A stretch of DNA of 64,000 nucleotides from a virus. The notes beneath the pieces were generated by a model. The model saw only the letters and a program-made list of their open reading frames with translations, was not told where the DNA came from and did no database searches. The stretch is from the IMG/VR virus record IMGVR_UViG_3300045988_182694, positions 5,939 through 69,938 of that record. One strand, 5' to 3'. A program made the translations under genes and the position numbers. Below, piece by piece: positions 21,206 to 49,256 of this stretch. How positions within the stretch are numbered: position 1 is the stretch's first letter; every line of letters starts with the position of its first letter.

Positions 21206-22246
21206 TTAAGCTCCCTGCCCTCTGCGGTCGGCGATGATTCGCTCGATGACCTCCTTATACATGAACATAACCTTTTCACCGACAGCCTTTCCTTCTTCAA
21301 TATCCTCAATGCAAGTCGCAGTAAAGATGTAGAGGCTTTGTGCATTCGGCGTGATAGCAGTCAAGGCGTAGGTGCGTTTGCCGTATTGGAACATCTCACG
21401 ATACATGAGGTCCACACCATCACGAGCGAGGGCAGCTTTGATGCAGTCCTTGCCTTCGTAAAAATCAGCTTCCTCGTCCTTCGCAGCTTTCAGATTTCGT
21501 GCGGGGATATCGGCGTCATCATCCAAAAGAGGTCGCCGAAGATTTGCCAACGGAACCACGATGATACCTTCGTCTCCCGTACTTCCCGCAGGCTGCAGTC
21601 GCACGTCCAAATAACTGAACTCGTCCGCAAAGTCAACGATACGATACATGGCACCCTCATAGAGAAACTCACGCTCATAATCGGTTGCTTTTAACGGATA
21701 GAGAGGCATATGAGGAGGGCCGTTGGTGCGTCCTTTTTCATCCTCAATATCCTCTTGCAATCGCAGGCATCGGGCATCCCAGATGATTTTCGCATCAGTC
21801 ACGTTGGGGTTGTTGTGGTACGGCGTCCGGATGAACTCGATACCGAACACGGCAAACCGGAATCTCCGTCCAGCACTATTGCGCTTTGTCCCGAACGATG
21901 GCCTTTGTACGAAAATTCGCGCCTTATAAGTGTCCGCCACATACCACAAAGCCGCTTTAATATCATCGCGCATCTCACCAACGCATGACTCAACGTACTT
22001 GGGATTGTCTGCGTCTACGATAAGGTTGAGTGTGACTTCTGTGATATTAGCTTTTTCGTACGAAACCTTGCACGGACGGGGAAGGTCGGGGTCATTTCCG
22101 TAGCGTTCTTTTCCGAAGGGGTCTTTACAGCAATAGGCCTGTCCCTTCACATTGAACTCAACAACCTGCTTGATGAACTCACAGAGCCCATTCTTGTTGG
22201 TGATTGCTCCCGCACCAACGGTAGTATCGAGTGTGTGCAGGTTCAT
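21206..22246 (-). CDS. Paralog family member 3 (346 aa)
   Basis: Same family motifs. Its ATG overlaps the IscB stop (ATGA). Confidence 0.75.
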   Translation of the reverse strand: MNLHTLDTTVGAGAITNKNGLCEFIKQVVEFNVKGQAYCCKDPFGKERYGNDPDLPRPCKVSYEKANITEVTLNLIVDADNPKYVESCVGEMRDDIKAALWYVADTYKARIFVQRPSFGTKRNSAGRRFRFAVFGIEFIRTPYHNNPNVTDAKIIWDARCLRLQEDIEDEKGRTNGPPHMPLYPLKATDYEREFLYEGAMYRIVDFADEFSYLDVRLQPAGSTGDEGIIVVPLANLRRPLLDDDADIPARNLKAAKDEEADFYEGKDCIKAALARDGVDLMYREMFQYGKRTYALTAITPNAQSLYIFTATCIEDIEEGKAVGEKVMFMYKEVIERIIADRRGQGA

Positions 22247-23520
22247 GTTGTTTCTCCTCTCCTTTCAATTAAGTAACTTGTAGATGACTCAACAATCGTT
22301 AGTGCCGTGTAAGGAGCACCTGTATGAACTTTCTTACCATCGAAATTCTTCAATGCAAAATATCCTCTTACTCTTCTCCCTGTGATAAAGCACTCTTGTC
22401 CGTTGAACAGGACTTTATCCCAGAGCCGGAAACCAAACACCTCATAGGGAGCTTGATTCCGTTTACGGATACCACCCTTAATGGGATTGACCTTATGCAA
22501 CTGCCGGTTATGATGCCGAACGGCTCGGATACGATAGAGCGTATCGCTGGGCTGTGCGTCCGGCACACGAGCGATGCAACGGGCATCGTTCACATGGGAT
22601 TTCTGGATGGCGTGAGTCTCGCGCAACAGCTTTGTGATATAGCCGTAAGTCTCCTTCACAGGAATACTGAGCTCATTGCGAAGCCTCCGCATCAGAGTTT
22701 TACGCATGATACCCATGAATGCCGCATCGCGGAAACTCTTACCCCGTTTCCTCTTACCCTCCTCCAGAGTAACAACTCCTGCGTGTAAGAGCCTATGGCA
22801 CTTCTCACAGAGGGTGATAAGGTTATTGGGGGCATTGCCTCCGACATGGCGGCTTTCCTTGTGGTGGACTGCAAACTTCACTGGAGCCTTATCTGTGGAC
22901 TGGATTCCGCAGCACTGGCAGGTGTAGGTATCCCTCTTGAGAACGTACTGGCGAACGTTATATTCGTCGTACATCTCTCCGAGCTGATAATCCGTACCGA
23001 CCGGTAGGGGCTTACCCTCCAGCATAGCCTTGAGCCGCTGCACATCAAACTCCGCTGTCTCCACGATGACCACGGAGATAGGGAGGATGGCACACGTTCT
23101 CTTGATGGCTGTGATATGCTCTTGGATTTTTACCTCTACCGAAGGTGCCAGCCAACCCTTATGTTTACTGTGGACGCGGTTGTTAAACCGTACAGCACGG
23201 TAACGAGTCTTGCGGTTCCTCCGGCTGCGGCGCAGCTCCCGCCTCGTAGAGAGCAACTCAACCACATCGTTGCGAGGCTTTACCTCCGCAGCGAAGAGTT
23301 CCTTGCTCTCGGTACAAGCGGACAATCCGATGAACTTGCTTCCGGCATCTACGCCCAGCGTGATATCCTGTTTATATTCGCTGCTGCGGTGCAGCAGGCG
23401 AATGGTAAACGGGGTACGCCGGACCACTGTTGCCTTGTGGTCTCTCAACATGATGCGAGCCTTCCGTGGGGAGCACGGCATCAAAGGCTCGCCGTGCTGG
23501 TTGAGTACATACACATACAT
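22243..23520 (-). CDS. iscB: IscB RNA-guided nuclease (OMEGA family), 425 aa, catalytic motifs intact
   Basis: PLMP domain GEPLMPCSPRKARIMLR; RuvC-I LGVDAGSKFIG; Arg-rich bridge RRELRRSRRNRKTRYRAVRFNNR; RuvC-II VIVETAEFD; HNH CQCCG...HHKESRHVGGN...LCEKCHRLLH; RuvC-III KSHVNDARCIA. Start refined to ATG 23520 (AAAGGAGACGACATCA RBS). Confidence 0.85.
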   Translation of the reverse strand: MYVYVLNQHGEPLMPCSPRKARIMLRDHKATVVRRTPFTIRLLHRSSEYKQDITLGVDAGSKFIGLSACTESKELFAAEVKPRNDVVELLSTRRELRRSRRNRKTRYRAVRFNNRVHSKHKGWLAPSVEVKIQEHITAIKRTCAILPISVVIVETAEFDVQRLKAMLEGKPLPVGTDYQLGEMYDEYNVRQYVLKRDTYTCQCCGIQSTDKAPVKFAVHHKESRHVGGNAPNNLITLCEKCHRLLHAGVVTLEEGKRKRGKSFRDAAFMGIMRKTLMRRLRNELSIPVKETYGYITKLLRETHAIQKSHVNDARCIARVPDAQPSDTLYRIRAVRHHNRQLHKVNPIKGGIRKRNQAPYEVFGFRLWDKVLFNGQECFITGRRVRGYFALKNFDGKKVHTGAPYTALTIVESSTSYLIERRGETT

Positions 23521-23810
23521 TGATGTCGTCTCCTTTCTTGTCGTTGTGACAGTTAAACTTAGACAAAACTGTCCTCTCTGTAGAGAGTGAGAATCCTTCC
23601 CCAAGGTTTTTCCGAGGTTTCCATGTATGCAGCACTGTTCCTTACCCTCAGAACTGTTTAACCACATACCGCAGAGCGTGGGATTAGGATTTACGTCCCA
23701 CGGTGCCTATACATTCTCGGATAACGTAGTGCTCGAAGCACTTAGGGTAGTCAATCAGGGCTTGCAGCTATTCACCACAAGCCCGTGGTTTTAACCACGG
23801 GTTATTGACA
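23521..23810 (-). ncRNA. Candidate omega-RNA of IscB-1
   Basis: About 290 nt, ORF-free, hairpin-rich (for example ACCCGTGG-TTAAAA-CCACGGGC and GACAGTT...AACTGTC), directly upstream of iscB on the same strand. 5' boundary uncertain. Confidence 0.55.
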
Positions 23811-25365: not shown

Positions 25366-25492
25366 GACAGCCATCCCAAGATTGGGATAACTGTCTGAAT
25401 TTATGTGGTGACTTGAAAACGGAGATAATCTCCTTTATAAAAATAGCTTCGTAATTATACTTCTATACTACCACAAACAGATACTTTGTCAA
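25366..25492 (-). promoter_or_regulatory. Promoter-leader-hairpin module, copy F (slightly diverged promoter half)
   Basis: -35 at 25487-25492; hairpin 25366-25395. Confidence 0.6.
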
Positions 25493-37266: not shown

Positions 37267-37344
37267 GATGGCGTAGCATAATGGTAATGCCGTGCCTCTC
37301 TCACAGACAACGTTATGCTGGTTCGACCCCAGCCGCCATTGCCA
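37267..37344 (+). tRNA. Non-canonical tRNA-like gene (best hand fold gives anticodon CUC, Glu?)
   Basis: Acceptor GATGGCG/CGCCATT, D-arm GCAT-AATGGTA-ATGC, T-arm GCTGG-TTCGACC-CCAGC, CCA encoded. The anticodon stem has a C.A mismatch and extra nucleotides. Confidence 0.35.
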
Positions 37345-37447
37345 ACCGGCGTTCCACCCACCCCGCCGGTATTCATCTCTCTTCGTTTCTCTTTCGAGAG
37401 AAGGCGGTGGCCTCCTGTACGGAGGCCGCCGCCAACTACCAAAACTT

Positions 37448-37523
37448 GCTGGTGTAGCTCAGTAGGCAGAGCGGCGCACTCGTAACGCGCAGGTCGTGGG
37501 TTCGACCCCCACCGTCAGCTCCA
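37448..37523 (+). tRNA. tRNA-Thr (anticodon CGU)
   Basis: 76-nt cloverleaf drawn by hand; anticodon loop CTCGTAA; T-loop TTCGACC; CCA encoded; A31.C39 mismatch. Confidence 0.8.
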
Positions 37524-37649
37524 ATCCACACTTTTTCTCTTTCTTTTCATTTTTATCCCCCCACTGTACGAAGCCCTCACAGACAACGCAGTTGAAAATT
37601 AAATTTCAGCCGCACCGCCTGTGGGGGCTTCACCCCATCTATCACCTAT

Positions 37650-37725
37650 GCTGCTGTAGCTCAGTAGGTAGAGCGGCGGATTTGTAACCCGCAGGTCGGG
37701 AGTTCGAGCCTCCCCAGCAGCTCCA
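37650..37725 (+). tRNA. tRNA-Thr (anticodon UGU)
   Basis: 76-nt cloverleaf; anticodon loop TTTGTAA; CCA encoded. Confidence 0.8.
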
Positions 37726-37764
37726 TTTTAATTCAACTCTACGGAGTCCAACTTCTTTACATAT

Positions 37765-37840
37765 GCGGATGTCGTCTAATTGGTGAGGCACCGGCCCTCC
37801 AAGCCGGTCATTGCGGGTTCGAGTCCCGTCATCCGCTCCA
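37765..37840 (+). tRNA. tRNA-Gly (anticodon UCC) with C at position 33
   Basis: Perfect acceptor GCGGATG/CATCCGC; all arms canonical; anticodon loop CCTCCAA (C32 C33 U34 C35 C36 A37 A38); CCA encoded. Confidence 0.7.
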
Positions 37841-37869: not shown

Positions 37870-38389
37870 ATACCTGCTCGCTGTCCGTCCATTGATTCGT
37901 TGCGGAAATCGGCGTCTCTTGGACACATTCTGTTCGCCGCAAGGCCTCGCTCTTTCGCTTGAGGCTACTGCGCCGAACCGCCTCGGACAGTATCGGCGAA
38001 ATGCGAAAGTCTCCTGAAGCGTGAGAAGCGAACCGCCTGCGCCTATATGTAGGCGGTGGCGTGATAAGGGAGATACTCCGTGTTGTTTCAGCCGCCGTGA
38101 GCGGGCATCAATGACCTGTGGGCACCTGCATTGCCCATGGGCACTGGGAAGCTGGGCAAATCTTAGGCACAGAAGCTCGTAGTCAAAGCCGACCCGCCGG
38201 ACGCGGTGCGTCAGCTTTCAAATTGGGCTTTGTGGGGTCCAGTGCTCTTGCGGTTGGGTTGCCGCAGGGCCGGCAAGAAATCATTATCAGATACGGCTTG
38301 GCGAGCCGGAATTTACGCCTGTGGAGACGAAATCCGTCGGTGAAACAGGAATTTTGGGGACACCAATACTTTGAAAGGACAAAAGACTT

Positions 38390-39442
38390 ATGGCGACGAC
38401 ATTCCAAGCGTTTAAGTATCGCATTTATCCTACGGATGAACAAATCGAGGTCATCGAACGCACCTTCAAGTGCTGCCGCTTCGTGTGGAATCACTTTTTG
38501 GAGCGTACCAGCAAAATCTACGACCGCCGGCAGGAAAGTATGTCAAAGTTCGACTGCATGAAGGTTCTGACCGAGATGCGTGAGCGCTGGCCGTGGCTGG
38601 AAGATTGCGGGTGTTCCGCAGAGCGATATGCTATCGTGAATCTGTTCGAGGCGCGTAAGGCCTTCTTCCGCCGTATAAAGGCAGGGGAGAAGCCCGGTTA
38701 TCCCAAGTTTAAGAGCGCCCGTTGTCCGTCTCAGAGCTTTACTACCGCCGGAACCATCTATGTGACGGACGAGTGCATCCAAATCCCTTTCGGCAGTCAG
38801 TATCAGAAAATCAATAAGGTCAAGCGCGGCAGTGGCCGCCCCGCTGTGGGTATCCCCCGTGAGGTTACGATATCCCGTTCCTCTACCGGTAAATACTGGG
38901 CATCCGTCTGTTGCATGGTGGAGCGCGAGGAACTGCCTGTCGCCGAGGGCGAAGTCGGTATCAGCCTCGGTCTGAAGGAGCTGGCTATCGACAGCAACGG
39001 CGTACACTATGAGAACCCGAAGCATCTGAGCAAGTCCGCAAAGCGTCTTGCTCGTGAGCAGCGTCGTCTGTCCCGCAAGCAGAAGGGTTCTGCCAACTAT
39101 GAGAAGAACCGTAAGCTGGTGGCTGAAATCCATGAGCATATTGCCAACCAGCGGCGTGACTATCGACATAAAATCAGCCGCGAACTCGTCAACAGCAACC
39201 AGCTCATCGCTGTTGAAAAGGTGGCTGTCAAGTCTCTGGTTGAGGGCAACGAGCAGGCCAAGAGCATCCTCGATGCCGGCTGGTCTGAGCTGACCAGCAT
39301 GATTAAGTATAAGGCTGAGTGGGCTGGACGCACTCTGGTGGACGTAGACACAGCCACCGTAGCGCCGGAAGCCAAGCATGACGAGGCGCTGGCACAGGTC
39401 GTGCTGTCCGAAGGTCAGCGCATGGCTTCCGAGGGCTATTGA
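38390..39442 (+). CDS. tnpB: TnpB-like protein, predicted nuclease-dead and C-terminally truncated (350 aa)
   Basis: Classic N-terminus FKYRIYPTDEQ. RuvC-I reads GISLGLKELA (Ser where Asp is expected); RuvC-II Glu retained (IAVEKVAVKSL). Homology ends after AGWSELTSMIKYKAEWAGRTLVDVD. No Zn-finger or RuvC-III. Confidence 0.8.
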   Translation: MATTFQAFKYRIYPTDEQIEVIERTFKCCRFVWNHFLERTSKIYDRRQESMSKFDCMKVLTEMRERWPWLEDCGCSAERYAIVNLFEARKAFFRRIKAGEKPGYPKFKSARCPSQSFTTAGTIYVTDECIQIPFGSQYQKINKVKRGSGRPAVGIPREVTISRSSTGKYWASVCCMVEREELPVAEGEVGISLGLKELAIDSNGVHYENPKHLSKSAKRLAREQRRLSRKQKGSANYEKNRKLVAEIHEHIANQRRDYRHKISRELVNSNQLIAVEKVAVKSLVEGNEQAKSILDAGWSELTSMIKYKAEWAGRTLVDVDTATVAPEAKHDEALAQVVLSEGQRMASEGY

Positions 39443-39648
39443 AGATTTGAAGTGGGAAACCCGCAAAAAGTCTAATAGCCACAGCCACAGCGACGTATGT
39501 AAGTTTTCTCTCAGGTAGAGGCGACGGATGCACCTGCGGGTTTTCCCAGCTCGCAGCAACTGCCAAGCATACGCCAAGGCAAGGGAAACACTACCACCCC
39601 ATTGGGGTGTGCCTTAACGGAAAAAACTATGAAAGGAGATAACGTTAT
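39443..39648 (+). ncRNA. Structured non-coding region: candidate omega-RNA of IscB-2 and/or guide-RNA scaffold of the TnpB-like gene
   Basis: ORF-free 206 nt. Long-range pairing GGGAAACCCGCA...TGCGGGTTTTCCC; hairpin CACCCC-ATT-GGGGTG. Position fits both families. Confidence 0.45.
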
Positions 39649-41133
39649 ATGGACATGGTATATGTGCTTAACAAAGATGGTAAGCCTTTGATGGCAACGA
39701 CTCGTGGTGGACGTGTGCGTTATCTTCTCAAGGAGAAGAAAGCACGAGTCGTAAGTTCTACCCCGTTTACCATCCAGTTGAACTATGATACCCCTGATGC
39801 TACCCAAGACTTGATTCTTGGCATCGACCCCGGCAGGACGAACATCGGCGTAGCTGTCGTCAAGGAGGACGGCTCCTGTGTGTTCTCCGCACATCTGGAG
39901 ACTCGCAACAAGGATGTACCCCTCCTGATGAAGAAGCGTGCTGCGTTTCGGAGAAACCATCGCACGTTGGACCGGCGCAGGAAGCGCCAGCGTCGTGCGA
40001 AGGCTGCGGGAACCACCATCGCCGAGGGTTCTGTCGAGAGATTGCTCCCCGGCTATGAGAAGCCCATTATGTGCCACCATATCCGCAATAAGGAGGCGCG
40101 GTTCAATAACCGCAGCCGCCCTGCGGGTTGGTTGACACCCACGGCGAACCATCTACTGCAGACCCACATCAACTTGATTGCGAAGGTTGCAAAGTTCCTG
40201 CCTATCACAAAAGTGGTGGTGGAACTGAACCGCTTCGCTTTCATGGCGATGGATAATCCCAATATCCGTCGGTGGGAATACCAGCAGGGTCCGTTGTGCG
40301 GACTGGGCTCCGTGGAGGATGCGGTGTACGCACAGCAGGACGGACATTGCCTGTTCTGCAAGAAGCCCATTGACCATTACCATCATGTTATCCCTCGCCA
40401 TAAAAGAGGGAGTGAGACGTTGGCAAATCGGTGTGGACTTTGTGCGAAGCACCATGACCTCGTCCATACGGACAAGGCGTGGGCGGATAAGCTGGTCACA
40501 CGGAAGGAAGGTATGAATAAAAAGTACCACGCCTTGAGTGTGCTGAACCAGATTATCCCGCACCTCATGGAGTACATCGGGAGCGAGACGCTCTACGATG
40601 CCTACGCCACGGATGGTCGCTCTACCAAGGGCTTCCGAATCGCCAAGAACGTGCCGAAGGAACATTACACGGATGCCTACTGTATCGCCTGTTCCATCTT
40701 GGACACCGATATTGAGGTCTCCGCTCCTGTCGAACCCTTTGAGATGAAGCAGTTCCGCCGGCACGACCGGCAGGCTTGTATCCGCCAAATGGTTGACCGG
40801 AAGTACATTCTGGACGGCAAGGTCGTTGCAACAAACCGGCATAAGACCATTGAGCAAAAGTCCGATAGTCTTGAGGAGTTCCGCGAGGCTCACGGCAATG
40901 CTGCGGTATCGCAGCTTACCGTGAAGCCCCACCATCCCCAATGCAAGGATATGGCTCGTATCATGCCGGGGGCGGTGATGGTTTTTGATGGGGCTGTTGG
41001 CGTCTTTCAGGGCTCATCAGGACGGAACAATGGTACACCGAACTATTACAATTCTACGAAAGGAGAAAGGTTTTTAACGAGGAGCTGTGTGCTTCTCGCG
41101 CAGAACGCAGGTATGGTTTTTATCCCCGCCTGA
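39649..41133 (+). CDS. iscB: IscB RNA-guided nuclease (494 aa), catalytic motifs intact
   Basis: PLMP-like [19 protein letters not shown]; Ruv[13 protein letters not shown]; Arg-rich [16 protein letters not shown]; Ruv[11 protein letters not shown]; [19 protein letters not shown]...[14 protein letters not shown]; Ruv[24 protein letters not shown]. Confidence 0.85.
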
Positions 41134-41270
41134 AAACTAAGTTTTGTGGAAAAAACACATCAAATCTTAAATGCCCGCCTCCGAGCAGAAGCCTGCCTAA
41201 AGCCCTATACCAAGTAAATAAAGTGTGCAATGATTGCACACATTGCCAAGGAAATAAAAACGAGTACGGA

Positions 41271-41394
41271 TGGTATAACCGGAATTTACGCCTGTGGAGA
41301 TGCATGGTCATCGTGGAAGCAGGAAGACTCTGTTTGCTGGATTTCACGTGAGAGGTGATGGCAGCACTTTAGGGAACTGAATATGCCTGTGTCG
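41271..41394 (+). ncRNA. Conserved structured leader L1 (extended -10 TGGTATAAC at 41271-41279) fused to array 1
   Basis: Near-identical to L2 and L3. Hairpin 41291-41323 and stem GCTGG.../...CAGC show compensatory or G.U changes between copies. Confidence 0.6.
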
Positions 41395-41815
41395 GGTGTA
41401 TAAAGCCCTGAAATAACAGGGTTGTATACCCTTCACCCCAAACACTGTCAAAGAGGCCATGGTGTATGATACCCTGAAACGACAGGGTTGTATACCATCT
41501 CCGTCAGCTTCTCGCAGCGGGCCTGCGGTGTATGATACCCTGAAACGACAGGGTTGTATACCCTATCTTAATATGAGGCGCAAAAGTGCCGTGGTGTATG
41601 ATACCCTGAAACGACAGGGTTGTATACCCCGGATGGGACGCGAGTAAGCCTCTATGTGGTGTATAAGGCCCTGAACTAACAGGGGTGTATACCAGAATAT
41701 CCCGTCCTCATCGACCGACACAAGGCGTATAAGACCCCGAAATAGCAGGGTTGTATACCAATGGCTCGTTCGGAATTTGGCATATACGGTTCTAAAATAA
41801 CGGGGGGTGTATACC
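41395..41815 (+). CRISPR. CRISPR-like array 1: 7 repeats (36 nt) and 6 spacers
   Basis: Repeat GGTGTATGATACCCTGAAACGACAGGGTTGTATACC. Repeat starts 41395, 41461, 41527, 41593, 41658, 41724 and ~41780. Spacers 30, 30, 30, 29, 30 and ~20 nt, all unique. Repeats degenerate towards the right. Confidence 0.8.
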
Positions 41816-41870
41816 GTTTGCAAATGAGTCTACATAACTATTGAAATCAAAAAGAAAGGAATATAAAAAC

Positions 41871-42449
41871 ATGGAACCTTCTATCAACCGAACCCTTACC
41901 GTCAGTGTCGTCAGCTATGGCGTCGTATCCGTCGTCAACGGAGTCATCAACGTTGACAATCAGGCTCCCATCGAGTTTCCCGCCGTGCTGGACGAGGCAT
42001 CCGCTGCCAAGCTGCTGAAGAGCAGATACGGCGGCAAGCTGTTCCCCGTGGATGCGAATATCGTCGTGTCTTCCATCCGGCACGAGAAGTGGAAGTTCTC
42101 TATGGACCTGAGCCAGTTCGTCGCTACCGCTGCCCGCAGCCGCGTGGACGGCACCGCATCCGAGGCCGACGATGCCCCCGCAGAGGACATCCCCGCCACC
42201 GAGCCTGCTGCTCCTGCGCCTGAGACGGCACCCGCTGCTTCTCCTGCTATCCCCATGCCTTTGGTCTCTGAACCTGAGGAGGATTTTGCGCCTGTAGCTC
42301 CCGAAGCGCCTGCTCCCGCCGGTGGTTTCGCTCCTGAGACCCCCGTTTCTGCGCCCGCTGCTCCCGCAAAGGAAGTCCCCTATGGCGGCAACTTCGATTT
42401 TCCCTCTGGCTTCGGTGGCGACTTCGGTTCCGGCTTCTTCGGCGGTTAA
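41871..42449 (+). CDS. Hypothetical protein with P/A-rich and FG-rich C-terminal tail (192 aa)
   Basis: ATG 41871 behind an AAAGGAA RBS. Confidence 0.65.
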   Translation: MEPSINRTLTVSVVSYGVVSVVNGVINVDNQAPIEFPAVLDEASAAKLLKSRYGGKLFPVDANIVVSSIRHEKWKFSMDLSQFVATAARSRVDGTASEADDAPAEDIPATEPAAPAPETAPAASPAIPMPLVSEPEEDFAPVAPEAPAPAGGFAPETPVSAPAAPAKEVPYGGNFDFPSGFGGDFGSGFFGG

Positions 42450-42455
42450 TAACCG

Positions 42456-42623
42456 ATGGATGTCGTGAACGTTGGACGTGGATGTCTTGATTGCATCAAT
42501 AAGGAAACTCCGACGAATAAAGAACCCTGTAAGAGCTGTTCCCGCTGGAATAGGTGGGAACCTGACGAAAAGTGTAAGGAAAAGATGGCGGTCAAAGCCG
42601 CCCGTGAAAGGACAAAGAAATGA
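42456..42623 (+). CDS. Possible small CxxC protein (55 aa)
   Basis: Not in the ORF track. CLDC...CKSC. Its stop overlaps the next ATG (ATGA); weak RBS. Confidence 0.4.
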   Translation: MDVVNVGRGCLDCINKETPTNKEPCKSCSRWNRWEPDEKCKEKMAVKAARERTKK

Positions 42624-42937
42624 GTAATACCAAGGCATCTGAAAAGCCCGTCGTCGTATTCATCAGTAATGACAACGATACCGTCATTGGTGTGATGGTC
42701 ATTAAGAACGACGATGAAAACCTGCAGAACAATCTCGAAATCATTGAGAAAAACTGGGTTGCTGCTCGTAACGAGTTGCTCCAGCGGGCTCGTGAGGACG
42801 ATAGCATTGAAGCAGACGAGGACGAGCTTCACATCGCATTCATCGCACACGAGTTGGAGATGTTCGACGAGCCCTATGAGACTATCGACATCTCCGGCGT
42901 TTACTCCGTCTCCAATGGGAATGTGGACCGCATCTAA
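42620..42937 (+). CDS. Hypothetical acidic protein (105 aa)
   Basis: ORF, translationally coupled. Confidence 0.6.
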   Translation: MSNTKASEKPVVVFISNDNDTVIGVMVIKNDDENLQNNLEIIEKNWVAARNELLQRAREDDSIEADEDELHIAFIAHELEMFDEPYETIDISGVYSVSNGNVDRI

Positions 42938-42999: not shown

Positions 43000-43027
43000 A
43001 CTAAAAATCTTAAAAGTTAGGTACGGA

Positions 43028-43152
43028 CGGTATAACCGGAATTAACGCCTGTGGAGATGCTTGGTCGTCGTGGAAGCAGGAAGACTCTGTTGGCTGGTAA
43101 TTACGTGAGAGGTGATACCAGCACCTTTAGGGAACTGAATATGCCTGTGTTG
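43028..43152 (+). ncRNA. Conserved structured leader L2
   Basis: Aligns with L1 and L3 over its whole length; stem GCTGGTA/TACCAGC. Confidence 0.55.
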
Positions 43153-43255
43153 GGTGTATGGGGCCCTGAAATAACAGGGTTGTGTACCCGCACTTACCGT
43201 GATATCGAGCATTGTTTTAGGTGTATGGGGCCCTGAAATAACAGGGTTGTGTACC
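43153..43255 (+). CRISPR. CRISPR-like mini-array 2: 2 repeats, 1 spacer (31 nt)
   Basis: Repeat variant GGTGTATGGGGCCCTGAAATAACAGGGTTGTGTACC at 43153 and 43220. Confidence 0.5.
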
Positions 43256-43321
43256 AGATTATATATGATATGTGTGTAGGTATTCGTTTAGGACAACTTG
43301 AAGTTGAAAGGAGGTCTCTGG

Positions 43322-43843
43322 ATGGCCTCAAAAAAAATATATAGTTCCCCTGAACTCTATGAGGACAAGTTGGTGCGCGTAATGGCGCGGCTTGGTATCG
43401 AAGAAGGCGACTACAACTACGACTGGAGTCGTCAGGAGTGTTGGGTTGAGTTCAGGTACAAGGGTGAGCTTTACCGCTTCTCCCATAGCGTGAAGAACGC
43501 CCAAGAGCACGGCATCTCCCTGCAGTACGGCTCCGATGCCTTCGCACAGGTCGTGCTCTCCTTGGAAGACCTCGCCCGTATGGTCGAACGTGGTATCTAC
43601 GACCTGTCCACATGGGTGGCCGGCATGAAAGCCCTGCCGGAGCGCTCCAAGCCTTTAGATGCCTGCTTTATTGCTCTCGGTTTCGTAGAGCCTCCCACAT
43701 CCAAGGAAGAAATCACACTCCACTACCGCCGGTTGGCGAAGGTGTATCACCCTGATGCCGGCGGCGATAGCTCCTCATTTGATGCGCTGTCTAACAACTA
43801 TGCGAAATGTATGAAGATTTTCGAGGAGGTTGCCGACAAATAA
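43322..43843 (+). CDS. J-domain (DnaJ-like) protein (173 aa)
   Basis: C-terminal ...ITLHYRRLAKVYHPDAGGD... with the HPD motif. GAAAGGAGG RBS. Confidence 0.65.
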   Translation: MASKKIYSSPELYEDKLVRVMARLGIEEGDYNYDWSRQECWVEFRYKGELYRFSHSVKNAQEHGISLQYGSDAFAQVVLSLEDLARMVERGIYDLSTWVAGMKALPERSKPLDACFIALGFVEPPTSKEEITLHYRRLAKVYHPDAGGDSSSFDALSNNYAKCMKIFEEVADK

Positions 43844-44352
43844 TGTATATGTCTCAGAAAGAGTTCAACGCTATGATGAAGAAAAATCCCCGCCTCCGTG
43901 TTCACGGTGCAAACAATAACACCCGCGAGCATCGCTCTAAGGCAAATAAGGCGGCAAAATATAGAAATGTAAAGGTATACGAGTATGCCGACGGTCTGGC
44001 CTTTTTCGGTAAGCCCCGCAATAACGGTGAAATCCCTACCGCTGTCTATGACAGCAAGAAGGAATATCACCGCTGGAAAGAGCTTCAGATTTTGGAGCGT
44101 GGCGGCCACATTCACGACCTCCGCCGGCAGGTTCCTTTGACAATCATTACCGAGTTCGAGTATCGTGGTCAGAAGGTCTCCGGCATTACCTACAAGGCCG
44201 ATGCGGTCTATGTGCGTGATGGAAAGCGTGTGGTGGAGGACGTAAAGCCCTTCGATACCACAACGCAGAAGTATCGGACCACAAAGGATTTCAACCTCAA
44301 GTGGAAGCTGCTGAAAGCTGAATATCCTACTTGGTCTTTTGAAATCTATTAA
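43843..44352 (+). CDS. DUF1064-family protein (169 aa)
   Basis: KYRNVKV...DSKKEYHRWKELQILERGGHIHDLRRQ...ITYKADAVY...VVEDVKP...FNLKWKLLKAEYP matches the remembered DUF1064 pattern. Confidence 0.7.
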   Translation: MYMSQKEFNAMMKKNPRLRVHGANNNTREHRSKANKAAKYRNVKVYEYADGLAFFGKPRNNGEIPTAVYDSKKEYHRWKELQILERGGHIHDLRRQVPLTIITEFEYRGQKVSGITYKADAVYVRDGKRVVEDVKPFDTTTQKYRTTKDFNLKWKLLKAEYPTWSFEIY

Positions 44353-44365
44353 AAACGAGTACGGA

Positions 44366-44490
44366 TGGTATAACCGGAATTAACGCCTGTGGAGATGCAT
44401 GGTCGTCGTGGAAGCAGGAATACTCTGTTGGCTGGTAATCATGTGAGAGATGATACTGGCACCTTTGGGGAACTGAATATGCCTGTGTCG
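44366..44490 (+). ncRNA. Conserved structured leader L3 (TGGTATAAC at 44366-44374)
   Basis: Aligns with L1 and L2; stem GCTGGTA/TACTGGC keeps pairing through two G.U pairs in plus sense. Confidence 0.55.
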
Positions 44491-44633
44491 GGTATATAGA
44501 ACCCTGAAACGACAGGGTTGTGTATCACAGAATAACTGCGGCAGCGGCATATATGGCTCTGAAACAACAGGGTTGTATACCGCATAAAAAAGGCTATGGT
44601 GTGTAATACCCTGAAATAACAAGGTTGTGTACC
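44491..44633 (+). CRISPR. CRISPR-like array 3: 3 diverged repeats with short spacers (19 and 16 nt)
   Basis: Repeats at 44491, 44546 and 44598 share CCCTGAAA(C/T)(G/A)ACA(G/A)GGTTGT(A/G)TA(C/T)C. Confidence 0.4.
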
Positions 44634-44817: not shown

Positions 44818-44896
44818 TTGACAAAATATCGAAATATAGTAGTATAGAATTATAAGGAAGGACAGTCTAACACAGACTGTCCTTCCGCTTTTTTAT
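44818..44896 (+). promoter_or_regulatory. Plus-strand variant of the promoter-hairpin module (copy I)
   Basis: TTGACA (44818-44823), 17 nt, AGTATAGAATTATAA, then a 13-bp hairpin GGAAGGACAGTCT-AACAC-AGACTGTCCTTCC and T6. Confidence 0.6.
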
Positions 44897-47610: not shown

Positions 47611-47657
47611 AGATGCGAGCGTCTGTGCAGAGGACGTACCATAAAGAAAGGAGAAAT

Positions 47658-49256
47658 ATGACTACTGAAAGAAAGAAGAAAACAACAGAAGAAAAAGTAA
47701 AGAGAAACACAACAAAGAAAGCGAGTAACACAACACGAAACACACAACCCAAGAAGAATAGCAAGAAGAAAACCAACAATTTACCCTTAGCACTTCCTGA
47801 TTTTCAGACTTTCCTTGAGAGTGATAAACCCCTTGATGAATTCTTAAAAATCACAGCCTGTTATGTCCGAGTCTCGACGGATGCACAGGCGGAACAAGGA
47901 TATTCAATTCCCGACCAGACCGCAAAGCTACAGGCGTTTTGCACTGTGAAGGGATGGGAGAACGTGAAGTTCTACACCGACCCCGGCTTCAGTGGCAGCA
48001 ACCTCAACAGACCGGCAATGCAGGAGTTAATAGCTGATGCTATGGCAGGGCGCCTGAAGGCAGTCATCGTATTTAAGCTGGACCGATTATCACGAAGTCA
48101 AAAGGATACACTCTACCTGATTGAAGATGTGTTCCTTCCAAATGAAGTGGATTTCGTCAGTATCTCTGAATCCCTCGACACAAGTACCCCCTTTGGCCGA
48201 GCTATGATAGGTATTTTGAGCGTTTTCGCGCAGTTGGAGCGTGAGAACATCTACTTACGTACCCGTATTGGCATGAAGGGACGTATAAGTTCCGGATTTT
48301 GGAGAGGTGGCGGCAATATTCCGTTCGGCTACGATTACGACAAAGATAAGAAAACGCTTGTCCCTAACGCCGACGCGCCTAAAGTGCAGCAGATATTCGA
48401 CCTCTATATCAAAGGCTATAGTTGCCAGAAGATTGCAGATATGTTAGGTCTCTGCAACGATATGATGGTACGGAATATTCTGAAACGACGTACTTACTGT
48501 GGGTATGTCAACTACAAGGAAGAAGAATATCCGGGCGTCCATGAGCCATTGATTTCCGAGGAAACCTTCGATATTGCTGCGGCTGAGTATGACCGCAGGA
48601 GTCGTGCTGGCCTTAATGCGTGTGGCGCAAACACGTATTATCTTTTGGCAGGACTTGTCTATTGCGGCGATTGCGAAGCGCGGATGCGTTATATGAAGTG
48701 GGGTAAATACTTCAAAATCATATGCTATTCTCATACCAGCAAAGCCTCGATGGTTAAGAACCCTGATTGTCCCAACATGGGCTTTCTTGCTTCTGATATA
48801 GAAGAGCTTGTTATCAATAAGCTCTTTGGAATTGGTTCCGGTGTTCCCCTCGAAGAATTTGAGGTAAAGTGGCATTCACCCAATACTCGTGAGATTATTG
48901 AGAAGCGCATCTCGGATGCGACTACAAAACTCAAGCGGCTGTACGGGCTTTATTCTGAGTCCGGTGACAGCGTCATCCACGAACGCATCTTTGCCGTCCG
49001 TAACCAAATTCGCACGTTACAGCAAGAACTCGACAACGAGGACAAGCATAGCATTAGGGACAGCCATGTGAGCTATGTTCGAGACCGTATTAAAAACGTG
49101 GGTGACATCTGGCCGCATTTAACACCTATGGAACGGCAGACTCTCATTCGTGATTGTGTTGATAAGATTATTATTCATCACGATGGAAGCGTCGAGATTT
49201 TCTTTTCTTTCTCTACTTTCGATGAGGACAAGCAGTGTATCGAAGACGAAAATTGA
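47658..49256 (+). CDS. Large serine recombinase/integrase (532 aa) with Lys-rich N-terminal extension
   Basis: Resolvase core YVRVSTDAQ...LDRLSRS...; recombinase and zinc-ribbon region CGDCEARMRY...; coiled-coil C-terminus. ATG 47658 behind AAAGGAGAAAT. Confidence 0.85.
   Translation: MTTERKKKTTEEKVKRNTTKKASNTTRNTQPKKNSKKKTNNLPLALPDFQTFLESDKPLDEFLKITACYVRVSTDAQAEQGYSIPDQTAKLQAFCTVKGWENVKFYTDPGFSGSNLNRPAMQELIADAMAGRLKAVIVFKLDRLSRSQKDTLYLIEDVFLPNEVDFVSISESLDTSTPFGRAMIGILSVFAQLERENIYLRTRIGMKGRISSGFWRGGGNIPFGYDYDKDKKTLVPNADAPKVQQIFDLYIKGYSCQKIADMLGLCNDMMVRNILKRRTYCGYVNYKEEEYPGVHEPLISEETFDIAAAEYDRRSRAGLNACGANTYYLLAGLVYCGDCEARMRYMKWGKYFKIICYSHTSKASMVKNPDCPNMGFLASDIEELVINKLFGIGSGVPLEEFEVKWHSPNTREIIEKRISDATTKLKRLYGLYSESGDSVIHERIFAVRNQIRTLQQELDNEDKHSIRDSHVSYVRDRIKNVGDIWPHLTPMERQTLIRDCVDKIIIHHDGSVEIFFSFSTFDEDKQCIEDEN

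Follow-up and report, generated by a model that had tools for sequence, protein, structure and literature searches.

What does a large gut phage do with a TnpB-like protein that has lost one catalytic residue together with its zinc finger, and whose gene is followed by arrays of scaffold-headed repeats? The question is raised by 64,000 nucleotides (nt) of the IMG/VR virus record IMGVR_UViG_3300045988_182694 (positions 5,939-69,938), called the window here, whose coordinates are used 5' to 3' unless a contig is named. An earlier note on this DNA hesitated between an exapted RNA-guided binder and a gene truncated by insertion of the IscB-2 unit behind it. The protein, hereafter dTnpB, derives from TnpB, has been domesticated and no longer moves; it occurs in a family of large gut phages and, judged from its residues, is probably nuclease-dead. 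We estimate at about 60% the probability that it is an RNA-guided DNA binder of the TldR/Cas12m kind served by multi-guide arrays. The first alternative, exaptation, finds support because dTnpB is conserved, lies in fixed synteny, is under purifying selection and is accompanied by a cognate omega-RNA-like scaffold. These arguments draw on 26 related loci, namely two metagenome contigs encoding the proteins P0002 and P0003 (88% and 74% identical to the window dTnpB) and 24 IMG/VR viral contigs of up to 190 kb; with the window they provide 27 dTnpB copies corresponding to 19 distinct proteins.

The open reading frame (ORF) runs unbroken from ATG to TGA and its product starts with the TnpB N-terminus MATTFQAFKYRIYPTDEQ, in agreement with the earlier description of an intact gene. 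PADLOC and Pfam were run on the 150 longest ORFs of the window, each 99 amino acids (aa) or longer, and 25 of 49 PADLOC and 25 of 31 Pfam families were listed. The PADLOC Cas12f/Cas12u models match dTnpB, as do Pfam HTH_OrfB_IS605 (residues 6-48) and OrfB_IS605 (residues 173-284), while only the first 24 model positions of the Cas12f1-like TNB domain are matched. The NCBIfam model IS200_TnpB aligns with 303 bits over model positions 2-311 of 360. A phmmer search of the PDB retrieves ISDra2 TnpB (8h1j, 8exa; E ~1e-50) and sets 'evGISLGlk' of dTnpB opposite 'aaGVDVGik'; because GISLG pairs with GVDVG, Ser192 occupies the RuvC-I Asp position. Catalytic columns were judged in an alignment of the 66 closest homologous sequences, where the RuvC-I column holds Asp in at least 90% of the sequences and Ser is confined to the dTnpB family. 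The columns of the RuvC-II Glu (E276) and of the RuvC-III Asp (D331) are invariant and both residues are retained in dTnpB. The serine in RuvC-I and the persistence of the RuvC-II Glu had thus been read correctly.

The zinc finger and RuvC-III had both been reported as missing. The CxxC...CxxC zinc finger is indeed absent, and RuvC-III is not. The closest full-length proteins are ordinary TnpBs of 370 aa, with Asp and zinc finger, that share ~50-55% identity with dTnpB; the nearest of them is P0005 (51% by BLASTP). In both the MAFFT alignment and a pairwise BLASTP comparison, dTnpB 'TATVAP----EAKHDEALAQVVLSEGQRMAS' pairs with the C-terminus of P0005 after a 24-residue gap, which shows that the zinc finger was lost through an internal deletion of 24+4 residues. 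What had been taken for an unrelated tail of 33 aa following ...VDVD is, as aligned, the ordinary TnpB C-terminal helix carrying D331. The NAA portion of the RuvC-III motif is altered, DENAAKNIL having become DEALAQVVL. An AlphaFold2 model built on the alignment (predicted local distance difference score 88.6, predicted template-modelling score 0.80) finds its best PDB match in ISDra2 TnpB 8exa, with a template-modelling (TM) score of 0.86-0.88; in this model all of the TnpB fold is kept except the zinc-finger module.

None of these peculiarities is private to the window. All 26 related loci encode a Ser192, zinc-finger-less protein of 348-352 aa, and the motifs GISLG, IAVEK and AKHDEAL, together with the same deletion, are kept in 27/27 copies. 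The locus order is equally fixed over the 27 loci and consists of a RecG-like helicase, a tRNA cluster, a single dTnpB, the scaffold called L and an array. By the Nei-Gojobori method, comparison of the window copy with that of L001 gives a ratio of nonsynonymous to synonymous substitution rates (dN/dS) of 0.078 (dS 1.14, dN 0.088; 88% identity), or of 0.10 for the C-terminal half alone. On this measure purifying selection on dTnpB, whose locus is fixed, is strong. The earlier note had proposed these two comparisons, of dN/dS across homologues and of related genomes devoid of IscB-2; the 26 such loci carry the same dTnpB and not a catalytically intact full-length tnpB. One allele, P0003 of L002, has an N-terminal half nearly identical to that of the active TnpB P0009 and has therefore recombined with an active gene.

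The family was met only in these viral and metagenome contigs. A protein search of one genome each from 185,579 bacterial and archaeal species returned no close relative of dTnpB, and no close relatives of the window phage were found among GenBank phages. A mobile IS200/IS605 TnpB is recognised by an Asp-Glu-Asp (DED) triad with a zinc finger, by transposon ends and by a guide corresponding to flanking DNA, a description that dTnpB does not fit. Y1_Tnp is not among the listed Pfam families, no search having been aimed at TnpA.

In every locus, the L scaffold of ~130 nt begins ~75 nt past the native dTnpB stop. L and the omega-RNA found 3' of the active TnpBs P0005 (L102), P0008 (L104) and that of an insertion sequence (IS) in L009 (7587-8965) are collinear. 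Invariant columns shared by L and these omega-RNAs include CGG..GG..A.CCG, GCCTGTGGA and GAAGCAGGAA; a GTGAGAG-like loop motif and a terminal GGTGTATAC...ATACC were recognised by eye, the 3' half being poorly aligned by MAFFT. Outside these short cores L differs from the active omega-RNAs. A single consensus structure accommodates 39 distinct L copies, with compensatory changes in several pairs (C-G/U-A/U-G and A-U/G-C in the GUGAGAG stem-loop). Rfam gave no match at E 1 or better between 37900 and 45000, a stretch that takes in the L scaffolds and arrays as well as the RNA preceding iscB-2. The end of contig L001 (12957-13038) repeats the preceding L in inverted orientation, which most likely arose as an artefact of metagenome assembly.

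The L009 element, also present in L016 and L011, is a complete active TnpB-only IS encoding a protein of 372 aa with GIDVG, zinc finger and DRD, followed by its own omega-RNA; its bounds were defined against the empty site in L010. In some related phages this IS is inserted at GGTTCTGG, within a tRNA-like sequence that lies upstream of the dTnpB gene.

The last 36 nt of L form a hairpin which is repeated (GGTGTATACCACCCTGAAATAACAGGGTTGTATACC) with spacers of ~30 nt in between, and this repeat resembles the omega-RNA 3' end over about the same length. Repeats were located by Hamming scan. Among 107 distinct repeats, 84% of the hairpin pair cells are Watson-Crick or wobble, versus 32-48% in shifted controls, and the variation is of the R-U / Y-G kind that preserves pairing only in plus-strand RNA. 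In P0005 and P0008, the two closest of the active relatives examined, a single terminal hairpin is present and an array is lacking, so that the array originated in the dead lineage. Arrays may arise 'de novo by serial duplication of omega-RNA segments' (PMC10691335), a proposal that the window arrays match. According to the IMG/VR repeat scan, in which matches were confined to the same phage family, further L+array units lie elsewhere in the same phage genomes, at least eight of them on one 172-kb contig; one distant unit adjoins a methyltransferase gene.

Between 81 and 87 distinct spacers were collected, and among 87 of them 64 measure 29-31 nt and 50 exactly 30 nt. The short spacers of array 3 recur, the 19-nt one in 14 and the 16-nt one in 11 of the first 27 loci scanned. 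With two exceptions, homologous arrays vary in their L-proximal spacers and share the distal ones. The series is s1-s2-s3-s4-s5-s17 in the window, new-s1-s4-s5 in L100, x-s16-s4-s5-s17 in L003, (s4)-s5-s17 in L024 and s17 only in L026; likewise, L019 has s47-s48-s13-s14 versus s13-s14 in L002, and L067 has s53-s54-s55-s56 versus s78-s79-s55-s56 in L089. A TnpB/RuvC-family effector thus stands next to direct repeats separated by unique spacers of uniform length, with polarised spacer variation between related genomes, features by which type V systems are recognised. The link initially suspected between dTnpB and the three scaffold-first arrays downstream emerges strengthened. Two other origins considered for the arrays were rejected: as IscB guides, because IscB is absent from most array loci and because the scaffold is TnpB omega-RNA-like and stands 5' of the guide; and as repetitive extragenic palindromes or transposon-end clusters, since the period is a regular 66 nt and the spacers are unique and turn over in a polarised way.

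Under the reading that we favour, each transcript composed of L, repeat and spacer would constitute a guide RNA, which dTnpB would load to bind complementary DNA without cutting, acting as a programmable roadblock or repressor in the manner of TldR and Cas12m. The arrays would choose the targets, host genes or competing mobile elements, and a few short guides would address the phage's own repeated promoter-leader cassette. Precedents exist for this scheme. TldRs in which one to three RuvC residues are mutated and the zinc finger is missing still bind DNA in an RNA-guided manner and repress transcription (PMC10705468, PMC13622181), and Cas12m silences plasmids without cleavage (PMC10691335, PMC11013384).

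The cassette is an intergenic unit of ~170 nt with ten copies in the window, at 85, 6160, 11317, 16367, 19992, 25449, 28838, 31910, 55775 and 63945 (plus-strand positions, each copy extending from about -115 to +60). Its minus strand displays a strong sigma-70-like promoter, TTGACA-N16-TAGTAT, a leader of ~110 nt with a GGAGATTATCTCC hairpin, then a hairpin and T-run terminator; a promoter-like copy in plus orientation lies at 44818-44886. Cassettes look like promoter-leader-terminator units of the antitermination type placed ahead of leftward operons. In ~950 kb of related phage DNA scanned for self-targets, two matches were obtained, both weak and both to a cassette. The 20-nt first-position spacer s66 (TCGTTTTCAAGTAACCACAT; L074, L089, L067) agrees at 18/20 positions with the copy at 25403-25422, and also at 15/16 in a 16-nt window scan in which shuffled spacers reach at most 13/16. 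The 16 nt past the last degenerate repeat of array 1 (TCGTAATTATAGTTCT; at least 18 arrays) agree at 15/16 with the cassette core, and may represent a diverged cassette copy beside the array, some similarity continuing downstream. We regard both as candidate self-targets, that is, as leads and not as proof. A common target-adjacent motif could not be derived from the two sites.

Several observations weigh against an RNA-guided binder served by these arrays. No protospacer for the ~30-nt spacers was found in GenBank phages or PLSDB plasmids queried with 42 concatenated spacers, nor in the ~950 kb of related phage DNA. Exact IMG/VR scans with five spacers recovered only further arrays of the same phage family and no protospacer, and a single JGI metagenome scan yielded another array (L100) and again no protospacer. 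Neither cas1, cas2 nor cas4 figures among the families listed for the window, and the window scans identified no integrase that would account for the constant 30-nt spacer length. Where a spacer follows any repeat but the first, its unit lacks the ~130-nt scaffold, and no anti-repeat that could serve its loading was identified. Finally, the invariance of E276 and D331 makes a residual or altered catalytic activity, for example in RNA processing, conceivable. One apparent off-array spacer match, in L064, was rejected since it turned out to be another L+array unit.

A more ambitious interpretation, which we advance tentatively and consider rather unlikely, is that CRISPR arrays are here caught in the course of their emergence from omega-RNA, with the locus as a living intermediate. 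A phage-borne nuclease-dead TnpB would have acquired scaffold-fused arrays by duplication of the 36-nt 3' hairpin; these would gain 30-nt spacers on the scaffold-proximal side without linked Cas1-Cas2, spacer integration being supplied by a host integrase or another mechanism, and would provide multiplexed silencing aimed at the host or rival elements and at the phage's own ten-copy cassettes. Since the repeat looks like the final ~36 nt of the ancestral omega-RNA, and the closest active relatives examined share the scaffold and have no array, the TnpB-to-Cas12 transition, long a matter of discussion, becomes directly testable in one compact system. If RNA-guided binding is correct, natural RNA-guided transcription factors of the TldR type would include, besides those with a single fixed guide, ones with multi-guide arrays subject to turnover, and a multi-guide TldR-like system would be placed in a large gut phage. 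From a practical standpoint, the locus offers a DNA binder of 350 aa, predicted to be naturally dead and programmable by arrays.

Four other explanations deserve consideration. The same constraint that speaks for function could reflect a protein that still cuts: a miniature type V-like interference effector with a non-canonical Ser-Glu-Asp site that would cleave targets chosen by the arrays, such as competing phages or plasmids. The RuvC-I Asp coordinates the catalytic metals, and its replacement by Ala is the standard dead mutant. This metal-coordinating residue is precisely the one lost in dTnpB, the zinc-finger/TNB module that delivers substrate DNA to RuvC is wholly deleted, and the NAA portion of RuvC-III is changed. 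We therefore judge a nuclease unlikely, in spite of the invariant E276 and D331, of the strong constraint on the whole protein and of a polarised spacer turnover that resembles immunity; according to Altae-Tran et al. (2023, PMC10691335), moreover, activity may persist in many TnpB groups whose catalytic sites are rearranged.

The L+array RNAs might instead serve another effector, for instance an active TnpB of the same subfamily from the host or from IS copies of the phage, with dTnpB as regulator, competitor or decoy. The active IS of L009, L016 and L011 encodes a TnpB that shares ~53% identity with dTnpB and has an omega-RNA whose core is related, the P0003 allele is a recombinant with an active TnpB gene, and some L+array units lie far from dTnpB in the genome. 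Such a division of labour is doubtful nonetheless: dTnpB and L1 are adjacent in every locus and the active IS is present in few, and L is unlike the active omega-RNAs outside the short cores.

We likewise give little credit to dTnpB as an RNA-guided recruiter that would bring a partner protein to guide-set sites, as in Cas12k transposition or with dCas12f and sigma-E. These are natural precedents (PMC13472631, PMC10691335), and the partner could be encoded elsewhere or among the small conserved genes of unknown function interleaved with the arrays: those at 41841-42449, 42456-42623 and 42620-42937, and those for a J-domain protein (43298-43843) and a DUF1064 protein (43807-44352). However, dTnpB is tied to these genes by synteny, and neither a sigma factor nor a transposase, TniQ/TnsC or another known partner family came to light beside it.

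The last explanation, a pseudogene decaying after truncation by IscB-2, retains practically no credence: the element does break the last four dTnpB codons in the window and IscB elements are mobile in these phages, but the same protein, with Ser192 and the zinc-finger deletion, is encoded in 26 loci without IscB at the site, the window copy agrees with uninterrupted alleles at every one of 348 residues, its dN/dS against L001 is 0.078, and its tail is homologous to the TnpB C-terminus. An RNA-guided binder remains our preferred reading.

The insertion itself can be reconstructed precisely. In the uninterrupted allele of the 26 related loci, ...ATGGCTTCCGAG is directly followed by CAGAAGCCTGCCTAA, and the junction between the two is the exact IscB-2 insertion point in the window, four codons before the native dTnpB stop; in IscB-free loci the gene ends as ...ATGGCTTCCGAGCAGAA(G/T)CCTGCCTAA. 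Identity of the window with this allele stops after 39433. The left end of the 1.75-kb element had been placed at about 39345 and is in fact at 39434, 9 nt ahead of the present stop codon. Its terminal inverted repeats are ATTTAAGATTTGATGTG / CACATCAAATCTTAAAT, and a 13-nt imperfect copy of the left flank stands at its right end (41173-41185). The sole effect on dTnpB is the replacement of QKPA by GY before the stop. The possibility that the bulk of tnpB lies beyond IscB-2 was rejected, as only 15 nt are found there and nothing larger was lost. No IscB stands directly behind dTnpB in the related loci (0/26), and the same element occupies other positions in L005 (15941-17668), L011 (3933-5653) and L023 (13628-15350); it is thus mobile, and the window insertion is private and recent. 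IscB-2 is unrelated to the dTnpB system and not part of it. The coordinates of the features discussed are gathered in the table.

Table. Features of the dTnpB locus and of the IscB-2 insertion, in window coordinates
Feature	Position	Strand	Description
Truncated 5' part of L	38292..38350	+	directly upstream of dTnpB; window-like clade alone; probably a remnant
dTnpB coding sequence	38390..39442	+	350 aa here, 352 aa in the uninterrupted allele; WED/REC/RuvC fold, TnpB-derived
Ser192 codon AGC	38963..38965	+	RuvC-I Asp position, D191 of ISDra2; GISLG in 27/27 copies
E276 codon	39215..39217	+	RuvC-II Glu
Zinc-finger deletion junction and RuvC-III Asp codon	39350..39382	+	..VDVDTATVAPEAKHD..; 28 aa lost internally; D331 codon 39380-39382
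IscB-2 mobile element	39434..41185	+	terminal inverted repeats, 215-nt upstream RNA region, iscB 39649-41133
Displaced native dTnpB 3' end	41186..41200	+	15 nt, CAGAAGCCTGCCTAA, encoding QKPA and stop
L1 scaffold	41264..41394	+	homologous to omega-RNA of active relatives
Array 1	41395..41815	+	7 hairpin repeats of 36-37 nt (last degenerate), 5 spacers of 29-30 nt, one of 19 nt
L2 scaffold	43021..43152	+	
Array 2	43153..43255	+	2 repeats, one 31-nt spacer
L3 scaffold	44359..44490	+	
Array 3	44491..44633	+	3 repeats, spacers of 19 nt and 16 nt

The IscB-2 termini carry perfect 17-nt inverted repeats, and four independent insertions show an imperfect copy of 8-13 nt of the left flank at the right end, which is unusual for 'peel and paste' elements of the IS200/IS605 type. 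The 215-nt upstream RNA region has no HEARO or other Rfam match at E 1 or better. A second, divergent element, IscB-1 (22243-23809, minus strand, 474 aa), is ~28% identical to IscB-2, and the only HEARO/omega-RNA match (RF02033, 138 bits) lies upstream of it at 23587-23809.

Directly 5' of the dTnpB module, a cluster of four tRNA genes (37267-37837, plus strand) is typical of large phages. Between this cluster and dTnpB, a conserved G+C-rich segment (GCGAAAGTCTCCTGAAGCGTGAGAAGCGA..CTGC....GCGGTGGCGTGATAAGGG; window 38000-38100, L001 9680-9760) is common to both phage clades though the downstream sequence differs; it has no Rfam match and may be a structured RNA. Further away, mobile-element genes at 47613-49256 on the plus strand and elsewhere specify a large serine recombinase (Resolvase/Recombinase/Zn_ribbon_recom), two PemK/MazF-like toxins, two Cro/CI-type helix-turn-helix proteins, YqaJ and YopX. 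This gene content suggests a temperate phage or phage-plasmid lifestyle. One window ORF matches the PADLOC 'Csx1' model (E 3e-28).

Among known systems, the best match to dTnpB is ISDra2 TnpB (PDB 8exa/8h1j; 34% identity, TM 0.86), in which the scaffold occupies the same place relative to the gene and precedes the guide. In contrast to ISDra2, dTnpB has a broken DED triad, no zinc finger and one copy at a fixed locus, and its guide region has expanded into arrays. TranC proteins are active nucleases; dTnpB, unlike them, is RuvC-impaired and devoid of the zinc finger. LaTranC (PDB 9jfo), with larger chains of 478-575 aa, is a distant relative (E ~1e-13 over 86 residues, TM 0.73) that shares with dTnpB the position of an intermediate between TnpB/omega-RNA and Cas12/CRISPR, its guide deriving from a split or duplicated omega-RNA. 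The dCas12f-sigmaE system (PMC13472631; PDB 9n9c; TM 0.58) likewise combines a nuclease-dead protein of the TnpB/Cas12f family with guide RNAs or omega-RNA-like arrays for the control of transcription, but it is found with a sigma factor gene on Bacteroidota chromosomes, whereas dTnpB is phage-borne with no associated sigma factor.

Closer parallels come from Cas12m (V-M), Cas12k (V-K) and the V-U* groups whose RuvC is altered, among them V-U24 (PMC10691335). As with dTnpB, a TnpB-derived effector with an impaired RuvC is borne by a mobile element and followed by an array whose probable origin, in line with that study's proposal, is the serial duplication of an omega-RNA segment; cas1/2/4 are lacking there, and for dTnpB none appears among the listed window families. 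At 350 aa and ~50-55% identity to ordinary IS605-type TnpBs, dTnpB stands much closer to TnpB than Cas12m and Cas12k do. Each of its arrays is headed by a complete fused scaffold, where these type V systems have one tracrRNA, and, again in contrast to them, its L+array units are dispersed over the phage genome. Compared by description, the dTnpB family could be identical with a V-U* group left unnamed by Altae-Tran et al. (2023).

TldRs, whose fliC-, csrA- and oppF-associated clades (Wiegand et al. 2024, PMC10705468; PMC13622181) were also compared by description, resemble dTnpB in that they are TnpB-sized, keep the WED/REC/RuvC fold intact, show a deteriorated RuvC triad and lack the zinc finger. 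They are immobile in a fixed context, with an omega-RNA-type scaffold beside the gene, and one TldR clade is phage-borne. In sequence and context, dTnpB agrees with TldRs on these points: the TnpB fold is preserved, at least one DED residue is mutated and the gene is no longer part of a transposon. The TldR signature advanced in the earlier note, active-site loss with C-terminal truncation, holds for the loss of one catalytic residue and not for the truncation, since the zinc finger of dTnpB was deleted internally and RuvC-III is kept, whereas many, though not all, TldRs are truncated at the C-terminus. Unlike TldRs, dTnpB has no association with fliC, csrA or oppF. The TldRs described have essentially a single guide RNA, whereas the dTnpB phages carry from three to at least eight scaffold+array units whose spacers turn over.

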